Shown here in pieces: positions 6,642 to 62,397 of a stretch of DNA of 64,000 nt. Below the pieces are notes generated by a model. The model did not search any database, was not told where the DNA came from, and saw nothing but the letters and a program-made list of their open reading frames with translations. Position 1 is the first letter of the stretch; every line of letters begins with the position of its first letter. This DNA is from a virus. Position numbers and translations under genes: made by a program. The DNA lies in the IMG/VR virus record IMGVR_UViG_3300045988_010396, positions 1 to 64,000 of that record; one strand, given 5' to 3'.

Positions 6642-6657
6642 TATACTTAAGTTCCCT

Positions 6658-7659
6658 TTAAGCCCAAGCAGCTATTTGCTTGTCTGTAGGCAACTTTGCA
6701 TTTACAGCAGTGATAAGAGCCTTCATTGCAGTATGACTGTCATCATCAACACAAACTAGTGTAATATCCTTCTCAGACTTCTGTACACTCTCATTACTGT
6801 CAGTGAAAGCATAATGAATGTCAAGAGTATCATACTTAGCTGTTGGGTCTACTAGATAAGTAGTCTTGATAATATTAGGATAGCCCATCATTCTATAGTG
6901 GTCTCCTCTAGCACCCATACAGAAGTACTCAAGGTCAGCAATATTATGACCATTATCTACATAATGTGCAGGAGTGGCCTTTTCTACCTTACCCCAGATG
7001 TAATCATCTCCATTGTAAGTAATCTCCATAGGCTGCACATCAAACTTAATGTACTCTTGGGGCATAGTACCAAGTTCCCAACTCTGGATAGCCTCCTCAA
7101 GGATAACCCCAGTGTATGTGCCTGTCAAGTCAGCAGCCTTAGTAGCCTTCTTGACCTCTGTCTCTGAGCTTTTATCCTTTAGATATACAGTAAGTAGAGG
7201 TGTAGTATCTCTAGATACACTGGCTACTATAGACAATGCCATAGCCTTGTAGAAATCAGATGCTGACATATTGGCACCTGCCTTCACATAGCCATACTTC
7301 TGGTTTGTGTCCTCCTCACCAAGACCTATATACTGACTGAATACTATTCTTGTAATATACTCCTCTCCAGCCACAGGAGCATCTGATACACCACCATCAA
7401 GAGTAAGAAGTACTCTCTTCAAAGGATGTCTCAGTGCATCAGACTTAGTAGCACTGACACTTATAATCTTATCAGTGTCAATAATGTCACTTCTAACTAT
7501 ACCTCCAGGTGACATGTATTGGAAATACAAATGAGTCTTTGCTGTATCTCCCTTGGGTAGGATAGAGCCTGCTGCATCTGTAGCAAGAAGATTAGCTCCA
7601 GTCTTCAAGGTCTTTGCTACATACAGATGTCTTACTTGATTGATACTAAAATTAGCCAT
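6658..7659 (-). CDS. abundant structural protein candidate (major tail/capsid-like), function unassigned
   Basis: 333-aa ORF followed by a strong terminator hairpin, typical of a highly expressed virion gene. Confidence 0.45.
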   Translation of the reverse strand: MANFSINQVRHLYVAKTLKTGANLLATDAAGSILPKGDTAKTHLYFQYMSPGGIVRSDIIDTDKIISVSATKSDALRHPLKRVLLTLDGGVSDAPVAGEEYITRIVFSQYIGLGEEDTNQKYGYVKAGANMSASDFYKAMALSIVASVSRDTTPLLTVYLKDKSSETEVKKATKAADLTGTYTGVILEEAIQSWELGTMPQEYIKFDVQPMEITYNGDDYIWGKVEKATPAHYVDNGHNIADLEYFCMGARGDHYRMMGYPNIIKTTYLVDPTAKYDTLDIHYAFTDSNESVQKSEKDITLVCVDDDSHTAMKALITAVNAKLPTDKQIAAWA

Positions 7660-33187: not shown

Positions 33188-33363
33188 ATAACTATGATTT
33201 ATAATAAACTAAATATATCTGTCCACCAAGAGTAAACATATTTACTATAGCCTCTCTTGGTATACCAAGTTCATTTGCCTGGCTTATTATACCCCTAATT
33301 GTCTGACCTACTATACAAGTCATTACTTTATTCTTCTCACCCATGTTCTAACTATTTTATAGT

Positions 33364-33434
33364 TTCGGGAGTAGGACTCGAACCTACAACCTCCAGCTTA
33401 TGAGGCTGGTTAGCTACCATTGCTAGCATCCCGA
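33364..33434 (-). tRNA. tRNA-Met(CAT)
   Basis: Reverse complement shows T-arm gtagg-TTCGAGT-cctac and anticodon stem ccagc/gctgg with loop cTCATaa. Confidence 0.75.
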
Positions 33435-33612
33435 GATATTGCCAAGATTTGGTATGGTACTTGGCATTGTAAGGTTAACCTTATACTTACACCCCCAATC
33501 ACCTACACCTATTAAGCTGTTGTTTATACAGGTCAGCTCCTGTTGAGGTTTACCTAGTAGCATTGGGTGTTACTCTATCACTGTAGGTAAGACAGTTTTT
33601 AGTAACTTGTAG

Positions 33613-33686
33613 AGCCTCCCCTCAGAATCGAACTGAGACTCCCTGTTTACAAGGCAGGTTTGCTAAACCATTAACACTAAGGAGGC
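33613..33686 (-). tRNA. tRNA-Thr(TGT)
   Basis: Acceptor gcctcct/gggaggc, T-loop TTCGATT, anticodon loop cTTGTaa. Confidence 0.7.
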
Positions 33687-33690
33687 ATAG

Positions 33691-33772
33691 TACCCCTGAC
33701 AGGAGTTGAACCTGCAATCCCCAAGGGCGTTGGTGTTTAAGACCAATGTGTATTCCATTCCACCACAGGGGC
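33691..33772 (-). tRNA. tRNA-Leu(TAA)
   Basis: Type II with long variable arm, acceptor gcccctg/caggggt, anticodon loop cTTAAac. Confidence 0.7.
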
Positions 33773-33779
33773 ATTATAC

Positions 33780-34232
33780 TTAGTAAGGTCTCAAATCACA
33801 TAACTCAAAGAGGTACTTGTATTTCAGTATATTATGTATGAATGTCTCACACTCAGACCTAATTCCTGCATATAGAGTTCCTTCTGGAATATTCTCATAG
33901 AACTTAGTAGTTCCTGCTTTGACCTCATTGATGAAGTCAATAGCATTAAGAGCATCACTAGGAGCACCTTTAATCACATTAGGTTGCATATGTCCAAGCA
34001 ATCCCTGATATTCCTCTGCCAATCCATCCTGATAGTCTGAGATAATACCTAGGAACTCATCTAGGTAAACATGAATATTCTTCTTAGGAGCTGCCCAATG
34101 CAGATTCTTACACTTAGTCTTCCAACCCTCCAGAAGGTTAATGAAGCTAATGAAGAATTGACTAGGGTTCTCATCTTGAGAAGGCTTGAACATCTCATCC
34201 ATTAGCTGATTATCTAGAAAAACACTATCCAT
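33780..34232 (-). CDS. hypothetical protein
   Basis: 150-aa ORF embedded in the tRNA array. Confidence 0.45.
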   Translation of the reverse strand: MDSVFLDNQLMDEMFKPSQDENPSQFFISFINLLEGWKTKCKNLHWAAPKKNIHVYLDEFLGIISDYQDGLAEEYQGLLGHMQPNVIKGAPSDALNAIDFINEVKAGTTKFYENIPEGTLYAGIRSECETFIHNILKYKYLFELCDLRPY

Positions 34233-34309
34233 TTCTCTAATTCTTTATTTGATACTGCAAAGTTAAGCTAAATATTTAACCTATGCAAGTAAATTACATT
34301 ATTTAACTA

Positions 34310-34392
34310 AATTATCTGTACCCTCCAAGGGACTTGAACCCTTATGTACTTAGTACACTAGTTTCTAAGACTAGCCTGTATACCCATTCCAG
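34310..34392 (-). tRNA. tRNA-Leu(TAG)
   Basis: Type II, acceptor accctcc/ggagggt, T-arm aaggg-TTCAAGT-ccctt, loop cTTAGaa. Confidence 0.7.
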
Positions 34393-34411
34393 CAGGAGGG
34401 TGTAAGCTCTC

Positions 34412-34858
34412 TTATAGAGAGCTATATTCTTTTGTAGCATCAAAGCTAGGGCAAGCTTTTGAGCTAAAGTCTCTGTGCCCATGTATAGATGCTTGAGGGT
34501 ACTTAGTCTTTAACTCCTTAAGTAACTTAACTAATGACTGCTTCTGCTGAGCAGTCCTAGTATCTTTAGGTGTCTTGCCATCAGAAGCACATCCTCCTAT
34601 ATAGCATACTCCAATAGAGTTAGCATTATGGCCAGCACAGTGTGCACCTATAATAGACTCATCTCTACCTGTATGTATAGAACCATCTCTATATATTACA
34701 TAATGATAGCCTATATCAGAGAAGCCCCTTTGAAGGTGCCACTGTCTTATAGTATCTACACTATAGTCTTTACCTTCTGGTGTGGCACTACAATGTACTA
34801 TTATTTCATTTATTTTTCTTGCCATACATATATTATAAAACTTATCATGTTCCCCCAC
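34412..34858 (-). CDS. N-acetylmuramoyl-L-alanine amidase (T7 lysozyme/PGRP family) endolysin
   Basis: IVHCSAT...GYHYVI...HGHRDFSSKACP zinc-ligand pattern of the amidase_2 fold. Confidence 0.7.
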   Translation of the reverse strand: MGEHDKFYNICMARKINEIIVHCSATPEGKDYSVDTIRQWHLQRGFSDIGYHYVIYRDGSIHTGRDESIIGAHCAGHNANSIGVCYIGGCASDGKTPKDTRTAQQKQSLVKLLKELKTKYPQASIHGHRDFSSKACPSFDATKEYSSL

Positions 34859-34922
34859 TAGGAGTCGAACCTAGCTCTCAGGATTAAAAGTCCAGAGTAT
34901 CCACCATCAATGCTTTGGGGGA
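34850..34922 (-). tRNA. tRNA-Lys(TTT)
   Basis: Acceptor tccccca/tggggga, T-arm ctagg-TTCGACT-cctag, loop cTTTTaa; one U-U mismatch in the anticodon stem. Confidence 0.7.
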
Positions 34923-34994
34923 GTGAAGCAGGGTCTTTTTAAGAGGTTTCATCTTATTCCTAGGAAAGATTTTTACCCTGCACACCCTCTAGTG

Positions 34995-35068
34995 CGCCTC
35001 CACAAGGACTTGAACCTTGAGTCCCCTGCTTAAGGGGCAGGTGCTTTAACCAATTCAGCTATAGAGGC
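34995..35068 (-). tRNA. tRNA, anticodon tentatively CTT (Lys); C at position 33 is atypical
   Basis: Acceptor gcctcta/tggaggc, T-arm caagg-TTCAAGT-ccttg, anticodon stem cctgc/gcagg with loop ccCTTaa. Confidence 0.55.
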
Positions 35069-35074
35069 TTATAG

Positions 35075-35149
35075 ACTTGTAGGTGGGATTTGAACCCACG
35101 AATCACCAGTTTTGCAGACTGTGCCCTTAGACCACTCAGGTACTCCAAG
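35075..35149 (-). tRNA. tRNA-Cys(GCA)
   Basis: T-arm gtggg-TTCAAAT-cccac, loop cTGCAaa, discriminator U; one mismatch in the acceptor. Confidence 0.6.
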
Positions 35150-35153
35150 ATAG

Positions 35154-35230
35154 TACTGGCAGAGGGACTTGAACCCCCATGTGACCAATTACCCTTTCTA
35201 GACTGTATAAGAGTCAGGGGATATGCCAGT
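35154..35230 (-). tRNA. tRNA-like element with aberrant core (no canonical D-arm); possible anticodon TAT
   Basis: Perfect 7-bp acceptor actggca/tgccagt plus T-arm ggggg-TTCAAGT-ccctc. The only internal arm found is tgact-cTTATAc-agtct, which leaves no room for a D-arm. Confidence 0.4.
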
Positions 35231-35237
35231 ATGTTGG

Positions 35238-35311
35238 GGTGTCTGATGGGAGTTGAACCCACACTACTTGGAGCCACAATCCAAGGCTCTGACCAATTAA
35301 GCTACAGACAC
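35238..35311 (-). tRNA. tRNA-His(GTG)
   Basis: Acceptor gtgtctg/cagacac, anticodon stem ttgga/tccaa with loop tTGTGgc, T-loop TTCAACT. Confidence 0.7.
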
Positions 35312-35313
35312 AG

Positions 35314-35385
35314 TTCTGATGAGTGGACTCGAACCACTAGCTACTGCCTTATGAGAGCAGCTTTCTACCATTGAAATACATCAGA
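35314..35385 (-). tRNA. tRNA-Met/fMet/Ile2(CAT), second CAT gene
   Basis: Acceptor tctgatg/catcaga, T-arm agtgg-TTCGAGT-ccact, loop cTCATaa. Confidence 0.7.
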
Positions 35386-35390
35386 ATATG

Positions 35391-35464
35391 TAGGTACAAT
35401 AGGACTTGAACCTATAACCTCTTGAATATCAGTCAAGTACTCTAACCAATTGAGTTATGTACCT
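35391..35464 (-). tRNA. tRNA-Ile(GAT)
   Basis: Acceptor aggtaca/tgtacct, anticodon stem cttga/tcaag with loop cTGATat. Confidence 0.7.
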
Positions 35465-35469
35465 ATATG

Positions 35470-35542
35470 TGGGAAAGATAAGAATCGAACTTATATCCAA
35501 GGATTTTCAGTCCTCTGCATAGACCATCTTTGCTACTTTCCC
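35470..35542 (-). tRNA. tRNA-Phe(GAA)
   Basis: Acceptor gggaaag/ctttccc, loop cTGAAaa, T-loop TTCGATT. Confidence 0.7.
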
Positions 35543-35547
35543 ATTGC

Positions 35548-35618
35548 AGATAGAGTAAGACTCGAACTTACATCTAAGGGTTAACAGCCCCTTGTTCTAA
35601 CCTTTGAACTAAAGACCC
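35548..35618 (-). tRNA. tRNA-Asn(GTT)-like, possibly a pseudo-tRNA
   Basis: Good D-arm, anticodon arm agggg-cTGTTaa-ccctt and T-arm gtaag-TTCGAGT-cttac, but acceptor strands gggtctt/tctatct pair poorly. Confidence 0.4.
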
Positions 35619-35626
35619 ATTATTTG

Positions 35627-35700
35627 TTGCTCCTACAAGACTCGAACTTGTGACCTTTGGTATGTAAAACCACTGTTCTTAACCACTGAACTAAGGAGCA
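35627..35700 (-). tRNA. tRNA-Val(TAC)
   Basis: Acceptor tgctcct/aggagca, loop tTTACat, T-arm acaag-TTCGAGT-cttgt. Confidence 0.7.
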
Positions 35701-35783
35701 TTGATAGGGTAGTTTCTTTAACCTCTAACTACCAAAAGAGGGTTCTAGCAAAAGCTCAACATTATGAAACACGGAAACTAATG

Positions 35784-35856
35784 TGGAGAATGAGAGACTC
35801 GAACCCTCTAATATAGCTTGCAAAGCTATCAGTTTAGCCAGTTAGCTTAATTCCCC
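35784..35856 (-). tRNA. tRNA-Ala(TGC)
   Basis: Acceptor ggggaat/attctcc (one G-U), anticodon stem atagc/gctat with loop tTTGCaa. Confidence 0.65.
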
Positions 35857-35861
35857 ATTAG

Positions 35862-35934
35862 TATGGGTACTTGGACTCGAACCAAGGACAACTACATCCC
35901 AAATGTAGCATTCTACCTACTGAATTACACCCAT
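35862..35934 (-). tRNA. tRNA-Pro(TGG)
   Basis: T-arm cttgg-TTCGAGT-ccaag, anticodon stem ctaca/tgtag with loop tTTGGga. Confidence 0.7.
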
Positions 35935-35940
35935 ATATTG

Positions 35941-36023
35941 CGGAGAGATGAGGTCCCGACCCCCAAGCATTACTGCCCCCATTGTTTTCAAGACAAGTCC
36001 CAGTCCCACTGAGTTATCTCTCC
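35941..36023 (-). tRNA. tRNA-Ser(TGA)-like, type II
   Basis: Acceptor ggagaga/tctctcc, long variable arm, anticodon loop cTTGAaa; T-loop non-canonical (gtcggga). Confidence 0.5.
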
Positions 36024-36075
36024 ATTTGCCTACCTACCACTGTAGGATAGGACTTTGGTTTTGTTATAAGTGTGC

Positions 36076-36147
36076 AGACTATGAGGGAATTGAACCCTAA
36101 CCTTCACATTGACAGTGTGATATGCAAACCACTACACTACATAGTCT
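36076..36147 (-). tRNA. tRNA-Asp(GTC)
   Basis: Anticodon stem tcaca/tgtga with loop cTGTCaa, T-loop TTCAATT. Confidence 0.6.
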
Positions 36148-36158
36148 ATATAATTTAG

Positions 36159-36230
36159 TACCCCCTGATAGAATCGAACTATCATTCTAAGTTTAGAAGA
36201 CTCATGTATTATCCATTATACTAAGAGGGC
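36159..36230 (-). tRNA. tRNA-Arg(TCT)
   Basis: D-stem gtat/atac, loop cTTCTaa, T-arm gatag-TTCGATT-ctatc. Confidence 0.65.
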
Positions 36231-36238
36231 ATCTCTAG

Positions 36239-36310
36239 TTGGGACTAGAGGTCTCGAACCTCTGCTATAAGAGCCAAAATCTCATGTGACTGCCACTACA
36301 CCAAGTCCCA
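36239..36310 (-). tRNA. tRNA-Gln(TTG)
   Basis: Acceptor tgggact/agtccca, loop tTTTGgc, T-arm agagg-TTCGAGA-cctct. Confidence 0.65.
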
Positions 36311-41403: not shown

Positions 41404-41489
41404 ACTCCCTTAGCTCAGTTGGTTCCGCAAGGCTTGAGAGCATCGGACTTTTAATCCGAGGGTCATGGGTTCGAGTCCCATAGGGAGTA
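41404..41489 (+). tRNA. tRNA-Lys(TTT) with an 11-nt insertion in the D-loop (86 nt)
   Basis: Acceptor actccct/agggagt, anticodon arm tcgga-cTTTTaa-tccga, T-arm atggg-TTCGAGT-cccat; D-region gctcagttggtt-CCGCAAGGctt-gagagc carries an extra cc-GCAA-gg mini-hairpin. Confidence 0.55.
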
Positions 41490-41506
41490 CTATTCATTTC
41501 ATTCAA

Positions 41507-41826
41507 GGGGCTGTATTTGGTCTTGACTGGTGGCTACTTGGTATGAGGACATGCAGAGACTGATGGAGAGACATCAAAACTTTAGGTGGCAACAGAATTT
41601 CTGCACCTGTAGCTCTTGCTGCTTAAGCAATCTACTGAGTTAGTCACTGACTTGGAAACAGAATAGTGACAAGACAAGATTTCTTGCATAGATAAATGCA
41701 AGTGGTGGACTATGTTGACAATCCAGTCAACCCCAGCAGAGAACCAACTGCATAATAAAGTGGTAAGCATGTGTAATCCTTATATTGAGAGCTATTAGGA
41801 CAGGGGTTCGACTCCCCTCAGCTCCA
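41507..41826 (+). ncRNA. ssrA: tmRNA (ssrA-like), tag reading frame ending ...SAPVALAA-stop
   Basis: 5' end GGGGCUGUAUUUGGUCUUGAC matches the E. coli tmRNA 5' end GGGGCUGAUUCUGGAUUCGAC. 3' end ..GGUAAGCAUGUGUAAUCC..GGACAGGGGUUCGACUCCCCUCAGCUCCA matches ..CUAAGCAUGUAGUACC..GGACGCGGGUUCAACUCCCGCCAGCUCCA. Internal ORF ggt ggc aac aga att tct gca cct gta gct ctt gct gct taa (stop 41624..41626). Confidence 0.8.
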
Positions 41827-41902
41827 GAGGCACGTTGTTAGATACTTCCACGTAGTGTGCCTTGGGTTAAAAGCTAGATTCTAACAAAAAAAAAAAGATT
41901 AT

Positions 41903-44779: not shown

Positions 44780-44918
44780 GGCGGAGTAGCTAAATGGTTA
44801 AAGCAACACCCTTACAGAATTTATCTGGTAAAGCAGTAGTGGGTTGTCAGGGTTACTTCAAGGTTATAGCATTAGTTTTGGGTGCTAAAGAATGTAAGTT
44901 CGAGTCTTACCTCCGCCA
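44780..44918 (+). ncRNA. tRNA-like RNA 2 with ~65-nt internal insertion; candidate Y-RNA-like tRNA mimic
   Basis: Acceptor ggcggag/ctccgcc, D-arm gcta-aatggtta-aagc, T-arm gtaag-TTCGAGT-cttac; internal motifs tctggtaaagcagtagtg and ttacttcaag shared with RNA 3. Confidence 0.5.
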
Positions 44919-45127
44919 CTTATTTACCTACCTCACCTAGCATAGTTATACAGGATAAGACCCATTATGATGGAGCACCGATGAAACTATCCTAGCCACG
45001 CTGGTATTGCTATTCAGTGAGTGAGAAAATGAATAGCCTCGAAGCATAGTGGAGATAACGTCAAGGAGTACCATCCTTAGCAGCTATGTAAAATTGGTTG
45101 ACAATCTGGAAAGACAGATAATAAAAT

Positions 45128-52343: not shown

Positions 52344-52874
52344 ATGGCAAAAGCATTGATTTTAGCTAAGACTGGGTTTGGTAAATCCAGTTCACTGGTT
52401 GGTGTACCCTCTGCTGGTATATTAGGCTTGGACCCTAAGGAGACTTATCTCCTTAGCTGTGTTAATAAGCCTCTGCCTATCAAGGGTGCATCTAAGATTT
52501 ATGTGCCTATACCTATGCAGGGTATTACTCCTGCTAACTTAGGTTCAGTCATAGGTAAGGGCAACAGGATTATCACCAAGGATGCCAAGATTGTAGCTGC
52601 TGCTATAGAGTTGCTAATCAATTCACCCTTCAAGAACATAGTAGTTGATGATATGAACTATCTATCGCAGGACTACTATATGAAGAATGCCATGAAAGGT
52701 GGTTGGGACACTCCTAAGCAGATAGGTTACAATATGGGTCTTATCTTTGACCAGATTGACAATGTGCCTGAGGATAAGAACATTATCTGTATGGCTCACT
52801 TTGAGACCTACAAGGATAAGAATGGTGACTCCATCTCTTACAAGTACAAATCAACTGGTAACATGGTAGCATAA
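52344..52874 (+). CDS. small P-loop ATPase (Sak4/RecA-like candidate)
   Basis: N-terminal Walker A LAKTGFGKSS. Confidence 0.4.
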   Translation: MAKALILAKTGFGKSSSLVGVPSAGILGLDPKETYLLSCVNKPLPIKGASKIYVPIPMQGITPANLGSVIGKGNRIITKDAKIVAAAIELLINSPFKNIVVDDMNYLSQDYYMKNAMKGGWDTPKQIGYNMGLIFDQIDNVPEDKNIICMAHFETYKDKNGDSISYKYKSTGNMVA

Positions 52875-53084
52875 CATCTGCCATTATCTATCTAATTGCT
52901 GGAACACCCTAAAGACAACTGAACTACAAAGTAATTGGTAACAATAAGCTTGAATGTTTGAAAATCAGTTGTATTCTTAGTGATGGAGAAATGGGCAATC
53001 AGCAGCCAAGGGACTCTACGAGTTCAAGGTTCATCGACTATCCCCTGTTGTGGGGGAGTACATTTATAAAGTAATCAATTATAT

Positions 53085-53699
53085 TTGGAAATGGTAGACA
53101 ATAGAGAAGTACACATTTATGCATTAAGACATCCTGATACCTTAGAAATAAGGTATGTCGGTAAAACAGTGAGAAAATTAAGTAGAAGGTTAGGGAATCA
53201 TATTGCAAATGCTAAAGGTAACCAGCACAATAAGCATTTAAGTAATTGGATTCTTAATATCTTGAAGGAAAATAAGAAACCTGTAATAGAACTCTTGGAA
53301 ACTTGTCAAAGTAATAACTGGCAAGAAAGAGAGCAATATTGGATTTCTCAATTTCCTAATCTGATAAATCTCACTGCTGGAGGAGATGGATGTGTAGGTT
53401 TTATTCATGATTCTAAAGCTATAGAAAAGATTAGACAATCTAAATTTGGTACTAAACATTCTGTAGAATTTAAGGAAGCTATGAGTAAAAGGCTTAAAGG
53501 TGTGCCTCTTAGTGAAGAACATAAAAGTAAAATAGGTTTAGCTAATAAGGGAAGGAAGGCTTCGGAAACTGCAAGAAAGAGGCTATCAGAATCCCACAAA
53601 GGTATTACTCAGAGTGAGGAATCCAAAAGAAAAAGAAGTGAATCTATTAAACTTTGGTGGACTAAGAGAAAGTCTATTGAAGATATAGTCAAATCTTAA
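53085..53699 (+). CDS. GIY-YIG homing endonuclease with NUMOD3 repeats
   Basis: HIYALRHPDTLEIRYVGKT...R core; repeats LSEEHKSKIGLANKG, LSESHKGITQSEESKRKRSE. Confidence 0.7.
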   Translation: MEMVDNREVHIYALRHPDTLEIRYVGKTVRKLSRRLGNHIANAKGNQHNKHLSNWILNILKENKKPVIELLETCQSNNWQEREQYWISQFPNLINLTAGGDGCVGFIHDSKAIEKIRQSKFGTKHSVEFKEAMSKRLKGVPLSEEHKSKIGLANKGRKASETARKRLSESHKGITQSEESKRKRSESIKLWWTKRKSIEDIVKS

Positions 53700-53972
53700 T
53701 GGAAACATTAAGGAGGTATAGTAGAGTGATTAACTATAATAGTTATACCTCATTAAATGGGATGAATACATCACACCTGAAGGTAAGTTTGAGACTGTAC
53801 TCTTTGGAAAGATGTCATGGGATGATACAGCTAAGGTAGCTGTAAGGCAGTTTGTAACCAATAATGATGGTGAATATCCTGCCAAAAGTCCTGTTGGTAT
53901 GTTTGAATCCCTGTATATTCCTAATGACTTGGGTATAGTAGCTCAGAAGATGCAGGAGTATTATGAGGGAGA

Positions 53973-54263
53973 ATGACCAGAGAGGAAGTAATCAGGTTAA
54001 GCTATGCATATGCAGCTAGCAATGGCAACCTGAATAGTAATGATACAAGTGTATTGCTACTATCATATTGCTTGGAAAATGGGAAACCTTATACAGAAAG
54101 TGCAAGGTTTGTGATGTGCTTGAGCAGAAGACCTGTGCTTCTTGCTTATTGTATATCCTATGCTCTTATGTGGTATGAGAAAAAATATGCCATATGTAAG
54201 CTGTATTCAGCACCCGACACTAGGGCATTTGGTAATGGGAGAAGAATAATCTTAATATATTAA
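53973..54263 (+). CDS. hypothetical protein
   Basis: 96-aa ORF. Confidence 0.3.
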   Translation: MTREEVIRLSYAYAASNGNLNSNDTSVLLLSYCLENGKPYTESARFVMCLSRRPVLLAYCISYALMWYEKKYAICKLYSAPDTRAFGNGRRIILIY

Positions 54264-55737: not shown

Positions 55738-56739
55738 ATGGCATTTGGTAACGGAGAGCATAGCATTACCCTAGAAGATGTCCTAGCAAGAACTACGGAA
55801 TTTGGCATACTATACCATTATTTCAATGTAAGTGAGCTGCCCACTGTAATACATTCACCTTTAAGGCATGACAGCAGACCTTCATTTGGTCTATATACAT
55901 TGGATGGTAAGAGGGTACATTACACTGACTTAGCCACTAAGGATAGAGGTGGATTGTTTGATTTGCTTATGAAGTATTGGGGGGAGAGCTACAAAGATAT
56001 GCTTAATCATCTTTGGAAGGATTTACCCAGTTTCTCCAATGCCAATGTCCAGTTTAATAGTATGAAGAGTGAGAGGTCTTACCAGTACCAGTCTCTCAAG
56101 TCAAGGAGCATAGACCTTCAATGTAAGGTCAGAGAGTGGAGGGATTATGATATAGAATACTGGGCTTCTTATGGTATATCACTAGAGTGGCTCAAGTATG
56201 CTGACATATATCCCATATCACATAAGATTGTAATTAGGGAGGGCCAAAGATATGTGTTTGGAGCTGATAAATATGCCTATGCCTATATAGAAAGGAAAGA
56301 GGGTAAAGTGACCCTCAAGATATACCAACCTTACAATAAAGGTGGGTACAAGTGGAGCAACAGACATGACAGGAGTGTCATATCACTTTGGACTAAAGTA
56401 CCTGAGTATGGAGATAGAATCTGCATATGTTCATCCATGAAGGATGCCTTGTGCTTATGGGCTAACACAGGAATACCTGCGTTAGCTATTCAAGGGGAGG
56501 GCTATGGTATGAGTGATACTGCTATTGGTGAACTCAAAAGGAGATATAGTCATATCTATATACTACTGGACAATGATGAAGCTGGACTGCAAGATGCGGT
56601 AAAACTGTCAGAGTCTACTGGATTCACCAATATAGTATTACCAAAAGTGAATGATGCTAAAGACATCAGTGATTTATACAAATCCCTTCAAGACCCTAAT
56701 AGGTTTAGAGGTATTATTATGCCCTTATTTAAGAATTAA
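55738..56739 (+). CDS. DNA primase (TOPRIM domain)
   Basis: C-terminal ICICSSMKDALCLW...IYILLDNDEAGLQDAVKL matches the TOPRIM E...DxD pattern. Confidence 0.55.
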   Translation: MAFGNGEHSITLEDVLARTTEFGILYHYFNVSELPTVIHSPLRHDSRPSFGLYTLDGKRVHYTDLATKDRGGLFDLLMKYWGESYKDMLNHLWKDLPSFSNANVQFNSMKSERSYQYQSLKSRSIDLQCKVREWRDYDIEYWASYGISLEWLKYADIYPISHKIVIREGQRYVFGADKYAYAYIERKEGKVTLKIYQPYNKGGYKWSNRHDRSVISLWTKVPEYGDRICICSSMKDALCLWANTGIPALAIQGEGYGMSDTAIGELKRRYSHIYILLDNDEAGLQDAVKLSESTGFTNIVLPKVNDAKDISDLYKSLQDPNRFRGIIMPLFKN

Positions 56740-56790
56740 GGTTTTTCAAGATAACATTAACAAAAGTTTTAACATTTAACATTTCAAATT

Positions 56791-57468
56791 ATGGAGACAC
56801 GTAAAGTAACCATCATCAATTCAAAGACCCAGAGCCAGAAAGTAATTCAGGACTCTAAGGCTACAACTCTCGGTGAACTCAAGCAGGAAATGAGGGAGAG
56901 AGGTATTGACTACACAGGTATGACTTTCTTTGAAGGTCACATGAGAGCTGAACTCAAGGATGATGCAGCTCCCCTGCCTGCTAACATACCCTATAAGGGT
57001 CAGGTAGTCAATGACTTGACATTCATGTTGACTGCACCTGAGAAGAAGGTTAAGTCAGGTGCTATGTCAAGAGCAGAAGCCTATGCAGAAATCAAGAAGA
57101 AGGGCTTGCAGGGTGCTTGTGTTAGTATGTTCGGTAAGAATTTCACACAGTGTTCCACTGCTGACCTTATCTCTTTGATTGAGAAGAACTCTGCTAAGGC
57201 AGCTCCTGCACCCAAAGCTGAGAAGCCTATAGAGGCAGCAGCTCCTGCAAAGAAGGAGGAAGCTTCTATAGCACCTGAAACTCCTGCTACTGGCTGTAAC
57301 TGTTCAAAGGCTATTGCCATTCTCGCAGAAGCACTATATGATAATGATACCATTGAGGGGGAGACCTATGACGCAATCATGGCTACTCTCAAGGGTGGTT
57401 CTTACAGTGCACCTGAGAAGATGAGCAAGAAGGAGATTGATACTATGTTTGACTTTGTGGAAAGATAA
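56791..57468 (+). CDS. ubiquitin-like (beta-grasp) domain protein; candidate Ubl of the conjugation module
   Basis: N-terminal 85 aa KVTIINSKTQSQKVIQDSKATTLGELKQEMRERGIDYTGMTFFEGHMRAELKDDAAPL...YKGQVVNDLTFML follow the ubiquitin strand-helix-strand pattern; Ala/Pro/Lys linker; C-terminal ..IMATLKGG plus a 22-aa tail. Confidence 0.35.
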   Translation: METRKVTIINSKTQSQKVIQDSKATTLGELKQEMRERGIDYTGMTFFEGHMRAELKDDAAPLPANIPYKGQVVNDLTFMLTAPEKKVKSGAMSRAEAYAEIKKKGLQGACVSMFGKNFTQCSTADLISLIEKNSAKAAPAPKAEKPIEAAAPAKKEEASIAPETPATGCNCSKAIAILAEALYDNDTIEGETYDAIMATLKGGSYSAPEKMSKKEIDTMFDFVER

Positions 57469-57494
57469 GGTCAGATTGGATAACACAGTGAAGG

Positions 57495-58853
57495 GTGAGT
57501 AGTATACTTGCCTTTCACTTTTTTTTTTATACAAGTATGAATGAAGAAATGACTAACAAGGCAAGGGAGTTATATGATAATATCATGTACTTTCCTAATA
57601 AGGTTCTTAGTATATTCAATGACTTCTTTGGAGAGCAGAGAATAGATATGCAGGGGTTCTGGAGCTTTGAAGAGTTCCTATATTCAATATCTGAGAACAG
57701 GCTCAGTTTTTTCTTCTCTAACAGAGGTGCTGTACTTAGTAGCCCAGAGTTCCAAAGTACCAGTAAAGAGAATAAAGCTATTATAGAAGATATGCTTGAT
57801 AATGGTGCTTTGGATAATACTGTACTCAGTGATGAGGCACTTGCCACATATTTCCTGCCTATAATGACTACTGCTGTATTGCAGCATGTTCCACGAGGGT
57901 TCATTCTTGTGCATTTCCCTCATGTAAGGGTTACTAATGAGCATGATAAATTTGTGGATATAAGTCACCTATGGGTTAAAGTACATATAAAGGCAAATGG
58001 CGCAGGCACAGGTTACTTTGGTGTGAATAGGAGTGAGTATGAACTCTCTCATATGAAAGCAGACTATATGCATAGTCATGTTCCTGGTATTCCATTCGGT
58101 GGGTTTACTAGTTTTATGTCTCCTTGTTTAGGCAGTGGACCCATCAGAAATACAGTAGCTACTCTTGCAATGGGATATGATGAAGCTATGTGGCAGTTGT
58201 TCTGTCTTGAACTGGACAAGTATGTTAGAGTTGAGAGTCTCTCTGGAGTACCTCATAGGTATCTGGAGAGGATAGGCAATGGTAGGGGCATGACTAATGG
58301 AGAAACCCATTTCTCCATGAAATCTAATACATTCAATGACTATAGTAACATATTCTCTAAGGAGGATATGAAAGACTTTGTAGAGCACCTGATAAGAGGC
58401 AAGAAGCTTAAATTTAACTTTATAAGAGGAAGCTATGGTTTTGCAATGTCCTATCTTGACTATAGAATACTCATCAGTAATGAGTTCATCGAGTGGTATA
58501 ATCTGAGATATAACTTAGGAAAATCTACTTCAAGTTATGATAACTTTATCAGTAAAGGAATACTGAAAGAATGTATCATCAACAATGGTAAGATACAATA
58601 TTTTAGGAACAATACTGATAATGGTAGAAACTATTATAGATATGAAGGAGCTAATGTATGTACATTCAAGGGTAAACCCATCAATATACATATAGTAGAC
58701 AGTTCCTGTGATACTCTTAACAAGACAGTGTTGGTCAATGCAGGTATTGCTGAGGAAATAGCAAAGGCAGTACTTACAATAGTAAATTACAAGTATGGAA
58801 GAGAAGAAAGAGGAGAAGAAGCTGGAATTGGTACACCAGCAATCTATCTATAA
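57495..58853 (+). CDS. hypothetical protein, possible E2-like component (start probably MNEEM at about 57537)
   Basis: Central YMHSHVPGIPFGGFTSFMSPCLGSG loosely resembles the UBC HPN...C active-site region; its position between the Ubl and JAB genes is the main support. Confidence 0.3.
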   Translation: MSSILAFHFFFYTSMNEEMTNKARELYDNIMYFPNKVLSIFNDFFGEQRIDMQGFWSFEEFLYSISENRLSFFFSNRGAVLSSPEFQSTSKENKAIIEDMLDNGALDNTVLSDEALATYFLPIMTTAVLQHVPRGFILVHFPHVRVTNEHDKFVDISHLWVKVHIKANGAGTGYFGVNRSEYELSHMKADYMHSHVPGIPFGGFTSFMSPCLGSGPIRNTVATLAMGYDEAMWQLFCLELDKYVRVESLSGVPHRYLERIGNGRGMTNGETHFSMKSNTFNDYSNIFSKEDMKDFVEHLIRGKKLKFNFIRGSYGFAMSYLDYRILISNEFIEWYNLRYNLGKSTSSYDNFISKGILKECIINNGKIQYFRNNTDNGRNYYRYEGANVCTFKGKPINIHIVDSSCDTLNKTVLVNAGIAEEIAKAVLTIVNYKYGREERGEEAGIGTPAIYL

Positions 58854-59985
58854 GATGATAATCCCTCAGGAAGTTGAGAAGAAGATAAGACTTCTGTGCA
58901 GGGAGATACATAGTGTGGAATGGTCTGGAGTGCTATTCTACAAGGTAAGTGGTTCATTTGAGGATAAGTCACTGACAATTACTTGTGTAGACTTATTTCA
59001 GATGGATGAAGGTACTGGAGGATATACTGAATATGATATGTCTCCAGATGTCTCAGGTTATATGGTAGACCATCCTGAGCTGCTTGATGCTGATATATAT
59101 CAAGGACTTATCCATAGTCATAACAACATGGCGACGTTTTTCAGTGGTACTGATACAGCCACTCTACAGTCAGAGGGTAGTGACATGAACCACTTTGTGT
59201 CACTGATTGTAAACAATGCTGGTAAATATACAGCAGGGGTGACTAGAAAGGCTAAGCTCAAACAGACAGTCAATGAGGAGTTCACATATCCCACATGGAG
59301 GGATGAGAGTGTATCTGGCAATAGAACCTTTATAGTAGAAAAGGAGTACATCCAATGGTTCAATCTTGACATTGAAATTGAAGGAGTCTGCAATGACTTT
59401 GAAACTGAGATGCTTGAAAGGATTAAGGAGATTAGGACTAATAAAGCCAGCTCTAGGAAAAGTGCTATCAATGTTAGAAGCCCTTATATTAGCTCAAATT
59501 ATGGAGGACCAATAGGTTCCTATGGTAGCCCCAGAGGATATACAATACCTGCTGATCCAGCCAACACTACTCCTATCAAGAAAGAGGTTAAGCAATCTAC
59601 ACTCTTTGGTGATAGTGATGAGGAGTTTATGGACTATGAGAAGTTCAAGCTCAGTGATGAGATAGTGGACTGGGTGGTCAAGCAGACCATCACTTGTAGT
59701 GTAATCATTCCTAACTCTAGTAATATTGACATAGAGAAGTGGGCTAGGTCTATGGATTCTCTGTATAAAAAGAGATTCACAGACAAGAAGGAGTTTGAAG
59801 CCTTTGCATCAAACTTTGTGGACTTTGTGGTTACCTATACAGAAGACCCAGAGGCTGCTGCCTTCTTGGATTCTACAGAGATGGCTGCTGTATTGGCTTA
59901 TCAAGTAAAAGAGAGACTAAGCTCCCTGCCTAAGAATGAGTGGCTGGATGCTTGGATTAAATTGTATGATGATTATATACTATAA
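58795..59985 (+). CDS. JAB/MPN (JAMM) metalloprotease, deubiquitinase-like (start probably MIIPQEV at about 58852)
   Basis: Complete JAMM signature: E in HSVEWSGVLF, then GLIHSHNNMATFFSGTD = HxH-x7-S-xx-D. Confidence 0.65.
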   Translation: MEEKKEEKKLELVHQQSIYKMIIPQEVEKKIRLLCREIHSVEWSGVLFYKVSGSFEDKSLTITCVDLFQMDEGTGGYTEYDMSPDVSGYMVDHPELLDADIYQGLIHSHNNMATFFSGTDTATLQSEGSDMNHFVSLIVNNAGKYTAGVTRKAKLKQTVNEEFTYPTWRDESVSGNRTFIVEKEYIQWFNLDIEIEGVCNDFETEMLERIKEIRTNKASSRKSAINVRSPYISSNYGGPIGSYGSPRGYTIPADPANTTPIKKEVKQSTLFGDSDEEFMDYEKFKLSDEIVDWVVKQTITCSVIIPNSSNIDIEKWARSMDSLYKKRFTDKKEFEAFASNFVDFVVTYTEDPEAAAFLDSTEMAAVLAYQVKERLSSLPKNEWLDAWIKLYDDYIL

Positions 59986-59987
59986 GT

Positions 59988-60899
59988 ATGGAAGATATGG
60001 TAAGTGAAGCAAGTGCTCAAGCTCTTAACCAATTAGAGCAGGCTCGTCAAGAGCTTGAAAGAGCTATTACGGATTATGAGATACCTGAGGAAGCTCAATT
60101 GAGTCCAGAAGAGGAAGCAATGTTGTCAGTAGCAATGGATAGTACACATCGTGAAATACCAGTAAACTCACAGACAATCACTATAGATGAGACTACAAGC
60201 AGGTTCAGTGGAGCTATATGGTATGAGGAGATACAGAAACAGACTGTCACTTTGGCAGGTGTTGGAGGTATTGGCAGCTATGTAGGCTTTTTGTTAAGTA
60301 GATTGAAGCCAAATAGACTTATCATATATGACCCTGACAGAGTTGAGACTGTCAATATGTCAGGTCAGTTGTATGGTCAGACAGATGTAGGTCGTTATAA
60401 GTGTGCAGCTCTTGCCGATATGGTCATGAACTACGCTAACTATTGCAATATAGTGGCATTGGGCCAAAGGTTTGAGGATAACTCTGAGGCTACTGACATT
60501 ATGATATGTGGCTTTGATAATATGGCAGCAAGAAGGACATTCTATGAGAAGTGGAAGCAGAGAGTATTGTCCTATCCTGCTGGTAGTGATAATAGAAAGA
60601 AGTGTCTATTCATAGATGGAAGATTGGCAGCAGAAGAGTTCCAAGTATTGTCTATTCAAGGGGATGATGAGAGGGCTATGGCAGCATATGAAGACAAGTG
60701 GCTGTTCAGTGATGTAGAAGCTGAGGAGACTATATGCTCCTATAAGCAGACTACATTTATGGCTAACATGATTGCATCAGTAATGGTCAATGTCTTTGTA
60801 AACTTCATAGCTAACCAATGTGGTCCTATCATAGATAGGGATGTGCCTTTCTTCATATCCTATGATGCAAGTACAATGTTTACTAAAGTTGAAATGTAA
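59988..60899 (+). CDS. ThiF/MoeB/E1-like adenylyltransferase
   Basis: Rossmann TLAGVGGIGSYVG followed by IIYDPDRVETVNMSGQLY (the E1 D.D.VE.SNL.RQ motif). Confidence 0.7.
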   Translation: MEDMVSEASAQALNQLEQARQELERAITDYEIPEEAQLSPEEEAMLSVAMDSTHREIPVNSQTITIDETTSRFSGAIWYEEIQKQTVTLAGVGGIGSYVGFLLSRLKPNRLIIYDPDRVETVNMSGQLYGQTDVGRYKCAALADMVMNYANYCNIVALGQRFEDNSEATDIMICGFDNMAARRTFYEKWKQRVLSYPAGSDNRKKCLFIDGRLAAEEFQVLSIQGDDERAMAAYEDKWLFSDVEAEETICSYKQTTFMANMIASVMVNVFVNFIANQCGPIIDRDVPFFISYDASTMFTKVEM

Positions 60900-61696
60900 T
60901 GCAAAGAGTAAGTGATAGAATGGGTCATACTATTGAATATATGTATAACTCAACAGGAGCTGTAAGTGGCAGCGGAGTTTCAGCTGCATATGTTAATTAC
61001 TCCTCGCACACAGTGTTTCCACTATTCTTTAGGGTTTCTTTACAAGGGGATAAGATTGAGCTTCCCATACTTGCCAAGGAGTGCGTGCAAGGTGACCTTC
61101 TTGCAAGATTAGAGGCTAGGTCAAACCCTCTCAGAAGAAGGGACATCATTATGCCCCTCTCTACTCTAGAGTTTAACCATGCTCCTTATAGAACAGCAGA
61201 TGCCTTAATCAGGAATCTGGTGGAGTTCAACTCCAGTAGGGGGGACATGTATCTGAGGGCCAAGACCAACAAAGGAGAGACATACTATGGATGTAATGGT
61301 ACTATATTCAACAAGGATATGGTTCCACTTATCTTCAATGTCATAGAATGTGAGATTGTGGGTAATACTCTTGCCTATAAGAGAGTCAAGAGTTATATAC
61401 ATCCATCAGTATTCTATTCTGATGGTATTGTGGAGAAGTGTATAGCCAACAAGATTATCCCATTTGTCATGCAGAATGGTGTAGATGTGAGACCCTATGA
61501 CTCAAGGATAGTCAATGACATCAGCTATGTAAATATAGGAGGAGTAAGGAAGACTATACCTGAGCTGTCAGTTGCCAATGTAGCTGACAGGTTCTTCTGT
61601 AAGCCCATTCTTCCTAGTGTGGCATATAGTGATGACAACATCAATGATATGCTTAACAGAAACATTGATGATATATTCAATATCATTGGGGTATGA
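60899..61696 (+). CDS. hypothetical protein
   Basis: 265-aa ORF overlapping the E1 stop by ATGTAA. Confidence 0.4.
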   Translation: MQRVSDRMGHTIEYMYNSTGAVSGSGVSAAYVNYSSHTVFPLFFRVSLQGDKIELPILAKECVQGDLLARLEARSNPLRRRDIIMPLSTLEFNHAPYRTADALIRNLVEFNSSRGDMYLRAKTNKGETYYGCNGTIFNKDMVPLIFNVIECEIVGNTLAYKRVKSYIHPSVFYSDGIVEKCIANKIIPFVMQNGVDVRPYDSRIVNDISYVNIGGVRKTIPELSVANVADRFFCKPILPSVAYSDDNINDMLNRNIDDIFNIIGV

Positions 61697-62397
61697 CACT
61701 TGAGGAATACTTTGGTGATTGGCTTAGAGTGATTGACAGAGCAGAGTTAGATAAGGTATTGATACTCCTTAACAGGATGTATAAGGTAAAACCTATATGT
61801 CCTGCACAGGAGAATGTATTCAAGGCATTCAACTTGTGTAAGTACCATGACTGTAAGGTGGTATTCATAGGTCAAGACCCATATCCTCAGAAGGGTGTGG
61901 CTACTGGCATATTGTTTGGAAATGATGCAAGTACTAGAGAAGATGACTGGTCTCCATCGTTAAAAATTGTTAGAGATTCAGTTATAGACTTGCGTAGACC
62001 ACATAATTTGATTACCTTTGACCCCACTTTAGAATCATGGGCTAAACAAGGAATCCTTATGATTAACTCTGCTTTGACAGTAGAGATGAATAAGGTAGGC
62101 TCACACACTATGTTGTGGAGGACCTTCATCTCAAAGCTACTAAAGAAGATGTCTGAGTATGATGCTGGTATGATATATGTGCTGTTTGGTGGCACTGCCC
62201 GTACCTTCAAGCCATATATAGGAAAGTATAATGATGCGATAGAGATAGAGCATCCTGCATACTTTGCAAGAATCAACCAAGACATGCCCTCAGATATATT
62301 CTATAAGATTAACAGACTATTAAAAGATAGGTGTAACTACCAGATTAACTGGTATAAAGAAGAAAAATATGAACAAATTGAAACTGAAAAAGAGTAG
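61693..62397 (+). CDS. uracil-DNA glycosylase-like (family 1 type)
   Basis: KVVFIGQDPYPQKGVATGILFG (GQDPY motif), ILMINSALTV, EHPAYFAR. Confidence 0.5.
   Translation: MTLEEYFGDWLRVIDRAELDKVLILLNRMYKVKPICPAQENVFKAFNLCKYHDCKVVFIGQDPYPQKGVATGILFGNDASTREDDWSPSLKIVRDSVIDLRRPHNLITFDPTLESWAKQGILMINSALTVEMNKVGSHTMLWRTFISKLLKKMSEYDAGMIYVLFGGTARTFKPYIGKYNDAIEIEHPAYFARINQDMPSDIFYKINRLLKDRCNYQINWYKEEKYEQIETEKE

Follow-up and report, generated by a model that had tools for sequence, protein, structure and literature searches.

The DNA analysed here (hereafter the window) is a stretch of 64,000 nucleotides, positions 1 to 64,000 of the IMG/VR virus record IMGVR_UViG_3300045988_010396. It comes from a crAss-like phage, and its region 56000-62000 shares ~70% DNA identity with Bacteroides phage crAss001 and the PhiCrAssBcn isolates (Steigviridae, Kehishuvirus). 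Near 37-38 kb the genes of the window change from minus-strand to plus-strand orientation, and at ~37-38 kb the GC skew changes sign as well. Inside the plus-strand replication block lie, in order, an SNF2-like helicase, a DnaB-like helicase, a Sak4-like ATPase, putative single-stranded DNA-binding protein (SSB)-region genes, a primase, five genes designated P1 to P5, and a uracil-DNA glycosylase (UDG). Our subject is the set P1 to P4 (Table 1), which a first-pass annotation, made from the sequence alone, had read as four co-directional genes after the primase that encode a ubiquitin-like protein (Ubl) with its E2-like, JAMM and E1-like partners. All four open reading frames (ORFs) were found where they had been placed, on the plus strand with the primase directly upstream, and every motif that had been quoted for them could be located.

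Table 1. Position and main characteristics of the genes and elements discussed in the text.
Feature	Position in window	Strand	Length (aa)	crAss001 orthologue	Basis or remark
DnaG/Toprim-type DNA primase	55738..56739	+			Pfam Toprim_2 1.9e-5; PHROG DNA primase 5e-39
P1, pro-Ubl	56791..57468	+	225	gp79	Predicted beta-grasp; conserved S-G tail
Invariant P1 tail, K85-K-[IV]-[KR]-S89-G90-A-M-S-R94	57043..57072	+			Predicted site, after G90, of JAB cleavage and E1 activation
Intrinsic-terminator-like hairpin	57487..57529	+			Scan; 15-bp stem, 3-nt loop, then ten T; between Ubl and E2-like genes
P2, E2-like protein	57537..58853	+	438	gp78	UBC/RWD-like core predicted; H179-S-H181 and C197
P3, JAMM/MPN+ metallopeptidase	58795..59985	+	396	gp77	JAB domain, aa about 25-170
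P4, E1-like adenylating enzyme	59988..60899	+	303	gp76	Single ThiF domain, aa 79-296
P5	60899..61696	+	265	gp75	No known fold match; start-stop overlap with E1 and UDG genes
Uracil-DNA glycosylase (UDG)	61693..62397	+		gp74	Pfam UDG 2.7e-10; syntenic downstream anchor

P1 is built from a beta-grasp domain (residues 1-83, nt 56791-57039), a flexible tail (84-92), a three-helix HeH-like domain (93-135), a low-complexity linker (136-168) and a helical C-terminal domain (169-225). Structure prediction returned a beta-grasp fold for residues 1-82, in agreement with what had been proposed for this gene, and the model has the beta-beta-alpha-beta-beta(-beta) order, over about 75-90 residues, that characterizes such domains. 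The S89-G90 tail follows directly after strand beta5 and is disordered in the model (predicted local distance difference test score, pLDDT, < 50). K85, S89, G90 and R94 are invariant among 316 unique P1 sequences, and the homologue in the Flavobacterium phage Fpv1 carries the tail KQVKSGG, with a KSGG ending. The LKGG motif, which had been put forward as a site of maturation, does occur at residues 200-203, 22 residues from the C-terminus, but it is not conserved: only one of its Gly residues is semi-conserved, the motif is absent from divergent Steigviridae, and we rejected it as the maturation site. The variable linker after the Ubl is also the place where, in the P1 orthologue of phage cr126_1 (KNV42_gp031; L087:6001-6927), the C-terminal domain of ribosomal protein L7/L12 (Pfam PF00542, 5e-12) has been inserted, an odd echo of the eukaryotic ubiquitin-ribosomal-protein fusions.

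P2 had been taken for a protein of about 450 residues (452, from GTG 57495). Its start is almost certainly ATG 57537, giving 438 residues, because the homologues, of 433-445 residues, start with M-x-E-E and because the hairpin with its T-run occupies 57487-57529. Numbered from this ATG, the protein consists of an N-terminal helical domain, a predicted central UBC/RWD-like domain (residues about 100-231, nt 57834-58229) and an alpha/beta C-terminal domain. The segment H179-S-H181 (58071-58079) and C197 (58125-58127) both lie in the loop 175-201, between strand 4 and the next helix, so that the putative catalytic Cys is found in the post-beta4 loop with an HPN-like His before it, as in UBC domains. 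Among 111 cluster representatives, which are 30-46% identical to P2 of the window, S180, H181 and C197 never vary, and at least 90% keep H179.

The E2-like nature that the first-pass annotation had suggested for P2 is therefore borne out as far as a conserved HxH...C segment is concerned, but not by a sequence-profile match to UBC or Prok-E2, since none was obtained when P2 and its 111 relatives were compared with Pfam, NCBIfam and PADLOC. Profile searches of the PDB with P2 were negative, hhalign against UbcH5B, Ubc13 and Ubc9 (with approximate sequences of these three) gave a probability of 0.1%, and Foldseek found no meaningful match of the P2 model in the PDB. The predicted model indicates a UBC-like fold only weakly, and the P2 family may represent a new branch within the UBC/E2 superfamily. 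With 2315 clusters at 50% identity this family is large; Pfam, NCBIfam and PADLOC do not contain it, and it was met only on phage or phage-like contigs.

For P3, the complete JAMM motif that had been noticed could be confirmed: the zinc site comprises E42 (58918-58920) and H107-S-H109-x7-S117-G-T-D120 (59113-59154), and E42, H107, H109, S117 and D120 are invariant in 13 diverse members, down to 27% identity. The Pfam Prok-JAB model scores P3 of the window at 21.1 bits (3e-4; cutoff 25), and it matches 13/13 of the diverse members, the best at 5.6e-6. Against the PDB, the P3 family profile retrieved JAMM1 (E 0.008) and CSN5 (E 0.04), the former being, in P. furiosus, an archaeal Ubl (SAMP) peptidase. 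Beyond a low-complexity linker, about 130 residues at the C-terminus form a conserved helical domain. In two distant relatives (L068:7229-9509 and L089:4710-7002) the JAB gene is split exactly at the H-S-H zinc-site codons; the first has there a group I intron (66 bits), whose opposite strand carries an ORF that by eye resembles a LAGLIDADG endonuclease, and in Fpv1 an endonuclease gene, gp55, stands between the JAB halves gp56 and gp54. That homing elements sit within the catalytic motif suggests that this DNA is strongly conserved.

The E1-like assignment of P4 was borne out by a Pfam ThiF match of 7.7e-18, whose 64.9 bits lie well above the cutoff of 28.1. Its motifs are G91VGGIGS, D115PDRVETVNMSGQ, K138, D177 and C250 (60735-60737), and GxGGxGS, DxD, Lys138, GFDN and C250 are invariant in 11 diverse members. 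In PADLOC, P4 matches the Cap2 E1-E2 models over their adenylation half (down to 3e-11), and its closest solved relatives are UBA5 (PDB, 9e-6), MccB and NAE1/UBA3. The P4 segment ETIC250SYKQTTFM aligns with EGVC250AASLPTTM of UBA5, i.e. with the position of the UBA5 catalytic Cys, and we consider C250 a putative thioester Cys. An N-terminal extension is hypervariable in the family (about 0 to 130 residues), some relatives being only 227-231 residues long.

The position of C250 is also that of ThiF Cys184. On another reading, P1 to P4 could in principle serve sulfur transfer, with a ThiS/MoaD/CysO-like Ubl that is adenylated and thiocarboxylated, that thiolates a small molecule, a tRNA or a DNA base, and that is released or processed by a Mec+-like JAB protein, all without any protein conjugation. 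We think this very unlikely on several grounds. P4 stays far below the cutoffs of the NCBIfam ThiF and MoeB equivalogs (62 vs 159 and 60 vs 152 bits); none of the eight profiled ORFs between 54761 and 62397 encodes a rhodanese, a cysteine desulfurase, ThiG/ThiH, MoaE or another sulfur acceptor; P1 has a C-terminal extension of 135 residues; the 438-residue P2, which has a predicted UBC-like core and an invariant Cys, is never missing; and the Cys of P4 aligns with the thioester Cys of UBA5.

The spacing of the genes adds information on their expression. A hairpin with a T-run was found 3' of the P1 stop codon in 57/63 distinct related loci (median free energy, dG, -21 kcal/mol; median T-run 9), and its stem sequences differ among the loci. 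The same scan, which did not extend to crAss transcription signals, found none after the primase, P2, P3, P4, P5 or UDG gene (0 of 44-74 loci). The T-run ends about 8 nt before the ATG of P2, too little space for a promoter, so that P2-P4 are most simply transcribed by read-through. On the simplest reading, the hairpin is probably an attenuator that sets the expression of the Ubl above that of the enzymes. Packing is tight further downstream, with a gap of 2 nt between P3 and P4 and overlaps of 1 nt (P4/P5) and 4 nt (P5/UDG). The last 59 nt of P2 (58795-58853) are read in another frame as the beginning of P3, and both frames of this overlap are kept in relatives, for example in crAss001 (6654-6721 of locus L001).

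While the first-pass annotation had regarded a phage-encoded copy of such genes as unusual, we found the module to be family-wide in the Steigviridae and also present in the Flavobacterium phages of Fipvunavirus. The order primase-P1-P2-P3-P4-P5-UDG was seen in essentially all of 80 IMG/VR contigs (mostly 50-103 kb); it is incomplete only in loci truncated by the end of their contig and in one where no UDG matched. It recurs in eight GenBank Steigviridae, namely crAss001, DAC15, cr85_1, cr111_1, cr126_1, cr128_1, Dulem virus 41 and bajarodcaudo virus 1. The four genes strictly co-occur, in the same order, in 88 Steigviridae loci and in Fpv1, an arrangement that is far beyond chance. In GenBank, P1 matches only 45 phage records, all of this lineage, and P4 also matches 29 Flavobacterium psychrophilum phages.

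In Fpv1 the order is primase, UDG, gp58 (P1), gp57 (P2), gp56/gp54 (the JAB halves) and gp53 (ThiF), with homologue probabilities of 98.7% for gp57 against P2 and of 98.8% and 98.0% for the JAB halves gp56 and gp54. The UDG gene is thus upstream of the module, not downstream as in the Steigviridae, and since Fpv1 has the four-gene core in different surroundings, this core is older than the Steigviridae and stays together while its neighbours move. A scan for P2 of 185,579 bacterial and archaeal species genomes gave four matches, all of them on contigs of metagenome-assembled genomes, 1-94 kb in length. These contigs (L091-L094, one of 94 kb) had been binned to Bacilli, Acholeplasmatales, Spirochaetia and Clostridium, and they look like mis-binned crAss-like phage sequence; the E2-like family is therefore, on present evidence, restricted to phages. 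A ThiF locus of a Xanthomonas jumbo phage does not appear to be an instance of this module, since its large upstream ORF is unrelated to P2 and its 243-residue downstream ORF is unrelated to JAB; the comparison covered these two ORFs of a locus that also has a small ORF of 70 residues.

This distribution bears on the possibility that the genes act as an anti-defence decoy, in which the JAB protein strips host conjugates, or the Ubl and E1 titrate the Bil, Bub, type II CBASS or PRTRC-like enzymes of Bacteroidota. Host Ubl-based defence systems do exist and act on phage proteins, the adenylation domain of P4 matches the PADLOC Cap2 models, and Iyer et al. list a Ubl/JAB/E1/E2 operon of Bacteroides thetaiotaomicron. 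Still, we give such a role little credence: the phage Ubl and E2-like proteins have no recognisable sequence likeness to their bacterial counterparts, which argues against recent capture or mimicry; the forward pathway is complete, with all putative catalytic residues invariant; and the genes are family-wide, not sporadic as anti-defence genes typically are.

As for the flanking genes, the primase is the upstream flank and a syntenic anchor, always found 5' of the Ubl gene in related loci. P5 is syntenic in 78 loci at 24-43% identity and is conserved only within the Steigviridae; it gave no match in Pfam, NCBIfam, PADLOC or the PDB, and no relation was detectable between it and the gene 3' of ThiF in Fpv1. 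A role of P5 as an accessory or specificity factor is possible.

Taken together, we find it rather likely that P1-P4 are a phage-encoded module for Ubl activation, conjugation and deconjugation, expressed with the replication genes of crAss001-like (Steigviridae) phages, although the conjugation itself is something that we infer. The earlier proposal of a conjugation module is supported in this sense, with corrections to the start of P2, the maturation site, the family membership and the spread. In the scheme that we propose, P1 would be made in excess as a pro-protein, with the terminator-like attenuator lowering the transcription of the enzyme genes. P3 would cut ...K-K-V-K-S89-G90 / A-M-S-R and thereby give a 90-residue Ubl with a C-terminal Gly and an HeH-like/helical fragment, a step that is suggested by analogy with the processing of BubAB, of the Bil pro-Ubl and of lambda TAPI. 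The single-domain P4, in which the adenylation domain, its motifs and the Cys position are evident, would then adenylate Gly90 and load the Ubl onto C250, from where it would be handed to C197 in the tentatively modelled UBC-like domain of P2. P3 could also remove the mark. There are precedents in bacteria, where both conjugation by E1/E2/JAB/Ubl sets and JAB maturation of Ubl fusions are known. Since the module is located together with the primase, the SSB-region genes and the UDG gene, we favour as its target a host or phage protein that acts in the replication phase over a protein of the virion.

Several observations weigh against this scheme. The Ubl domain of P1 has no sequence match to any Ubl family, and its best structural matches include the DIX/SOSEKI polymerisation domains, so that a non-conjugated role is possible. 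G90 has no free C-terminus, being followed by Ala and further C-terminal residues (135 in all), and its role hinges on the putative cleavage. In the entire P4 family the Arg of N-x-x-R-Q is replaced by Gly, as N-[ML]-[SA]-G-Q (60354-60368, residues 123-127, in the window), and the canonical nucleotide-binding Arg of ThiF, MoeB and UBA5 is thus missing. No E3 was identified in the module, and the choice of target would therefore have to be made by the flanking domains of P2, perhaps with P5. Finally, the hairpin after P1 could simply end a transcription unit.

The DIX likeness, in particular, would suit a P1 that is a non-conjugated or polymerising replication scaffold, combining a DIX-like beta-grasp domain with an HeH DNA-binding module, in which case the four genes would be mere neighbours and the JAB, ThiF and P2 proteins would act on a different substrate, for instance by the adenylation or processing of another peptide or a metabolite in the manner of MccB/PaaA. 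We hold this to be improbable, because S-G is invariant exactly at the position of a Ubl C-terminus (GG in Fpv1), because the four genes stay together despite altered surroundings, as where UDG precedes the module in Fpv1, and because there is no room for a promoter before the P2 ATG, leaving read-through as the simplest way to transcribe P2-P4. Compared with the conjugation module as such, a broader claim stands evenly balanced in our judgement: that the Steigviridae (including crAss001 and DAC15) and Fipvunavirus run their own complete Ubl cascade during replication, with a JAMM-matured pro-Ubl, a UBA5-like E1 and a phage-restricted E2-like protein, of a family not recognised before, that also selects the substrate.

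If this broader claim holds, the cascade would be the first bacteriophage-encoded E1-E2-deubiquitinase-Ubl system, in which the virus tags host or viral proteins instead of the host tagging the virus. Bil, Bub and type II CBASS are now seen as host weapons against phages, and a complete, family-wide cascade on the phage side would reverse this picture and would give bacteriophages a capacity for protein tagging so far known only for eukaryotic viruses. The module would, moreover, offer a case from nature in which a Ubl is freed from a fusion that has it at the N-terminus. The module is found in phages that dominate the human gut virome, the Steigviridae being the most abundant cultured crAss-like lineage, and the prediction can be tested with crAss001 on B. 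intestinalis and DAC15 on B. thetaiotaomicron, both hosts being culturable. The present GenBank labels of the crAss001 orthologues are misleading and can be corrected: gp79, gp78 and gp75 are annotated as hypothetical, gp77 as 'metalloprotease domain' and gp76 as 'thiamine biosynthesis protein ThiF', beside gp74 as UDG.

Some other features of the window were recorded. A group I intron of ~890 nt (about 52869-53760; Rfam RF00028, 51 bits, E 1e-11) interrupts the Sak4-like ATPase gene (52344-53976) after codon 167 and contains an ORF of 204 residues (53085-53699) resembling, by eye, a GIY-YIG/NUMOD-type homing endonuclease; exon 2 (53761-53976) continues the alignment with crAss001 gp84 at 71% identity. 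A phage tmRNA lies at 41404-41829 (Rfam RF00023, 83 bits; ARAGORN tag peptide ASGGLC*); before it comes a tRNA-like gene of 87 nt whose anticodon loop is irregular. Seventeen tRNA genes are clustered at 33362-36310 on the minus strand, at the boundary of the minus- and plus-strand gene blocks, and one further tRNA-Pro is on the plus strand at 44846-44919.

We found no earlier account of the module in full-text literature searches or in papers on crAss001, on crAss taxonomy and genomics (Yutin 2021) and on persistence; the coverage of the literature was incomplete, so that this is absence of evidence only. A 2026 preprint mentions in passing a gut-phage protein family that resembles UBA5, as a possible ubiquitination-like homologue.

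Among the known systems, the first-pass annotation had matched the module to the Bil-type operons. The gene order is indeed that of BilABCD, but neither the E1 architecture nor the Bil hidden Markov models agree. The Bil antiphage operon is defined by an E1 with an inactive and an active adenylation domain plus a CYS domain, and BilD is such a tandem IAD-AAD-CYS enzyme, whereas P4 has one adenylation domain of about 220 residues with its Cys at the UBA5/ThiF position. The PADLOC BilD model matches P4 only in part (6.8e-6), and BilA, BilB and BilC were matched by none of the proteins: P1 and P2 gave no PADLOC match at all, and P3 just a generic JAB match (0.013). Bil systems, moreover, sit in bacterial defence islands, while the module described here is encoded by a lytic phage and has its Ubl at the N-terminus of a pro-protein.

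In type I Bub systems (6E.1/DUF6527), the E1 and E2 are without a catalytic Cys and form Tyr/Ser oxyesters, and the DUF6527 protein BubE is a serine protease. P2 and P4, unlike these Cys-less enzymes, each have an invariant Cys, and DUF6527 has no match in any gene of the block. The Bub-type fusions of Ubl to E2 or of JAB to E1 are also absent from the phage module, where the Ubl comes first in P1 and its partner domain is HeH-like/helical. Type II CBASS combines a CD-NTase with a fused E1-E2 (Cap2) and a JAB protein (Cap3); the E1 and E2-like proteins of the phage are separate genes, the Cap2 models cover the adenylation domain only, and no CD-NTase match was found in the phage block. It is the C-terminus of the CD-NTase that CBASS uses, whereas the phage module has a dedicated Ubl.

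The only phage Ubl-JAB pair described earlier is TAPI (Ubl) with TAPK (JAB+NlpC) of lambda and T1. TAPI resembles P1 in having a conserved Gly at the end of the Ubl, then a linker and a second domain, and in its predicted release by JAB, but TAPI/TAPK has no E1 or E2, is concerned with processing only, and belongs to a tail module and not a replication module. P4 shares with UBA5, ThiF and MoeB a Rossmann adenylation domain in which the motifs are GxGxxG, DxD, Lys and Asp, together with a Cys where UBA5 has Cys250 and ThiF has Cys184; it differs from them in that they keep the Arg of N-x-x-R-Q and in the hypervariable N-terminal extension of its family. No paired CxxC was seen in P4, although no systematic look was made.

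In gene content the module resembles the class 6d/PRTRC cassettes of Iyer, Burroughs and Aravind, which carry a Ubl, a JAB protein, an E1, an E2-like protein and an alpha-helical protein on mobile elements, including those of Bacteroides. The phage module likewise has five genes, for Ubl, E2-like, JAB, E1 and a fast-evolving unknown protein, on a mobile element of Bacteroidota. Membership in PRTRC was rejected, as the NCBIfam models scored far too low (PRTRC_ThiF 37.8 vs 144.75; PRTRC_A 12 vs 101.8), and neither ParB nor any further PRTRC match was found in the phage block. In the 6d E2s no His precedes the Cys, whereas C197 of P2 is preceded by H-S-H, as in the classical HPN...C arrangement. 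The phage module would thus work in the way of a Bil-type cascade supplied with a Bub/TAPI-type pro-Ubl and a UBA5/ThiF-type E1, but by the defining features of these systems it is a member of none of them.

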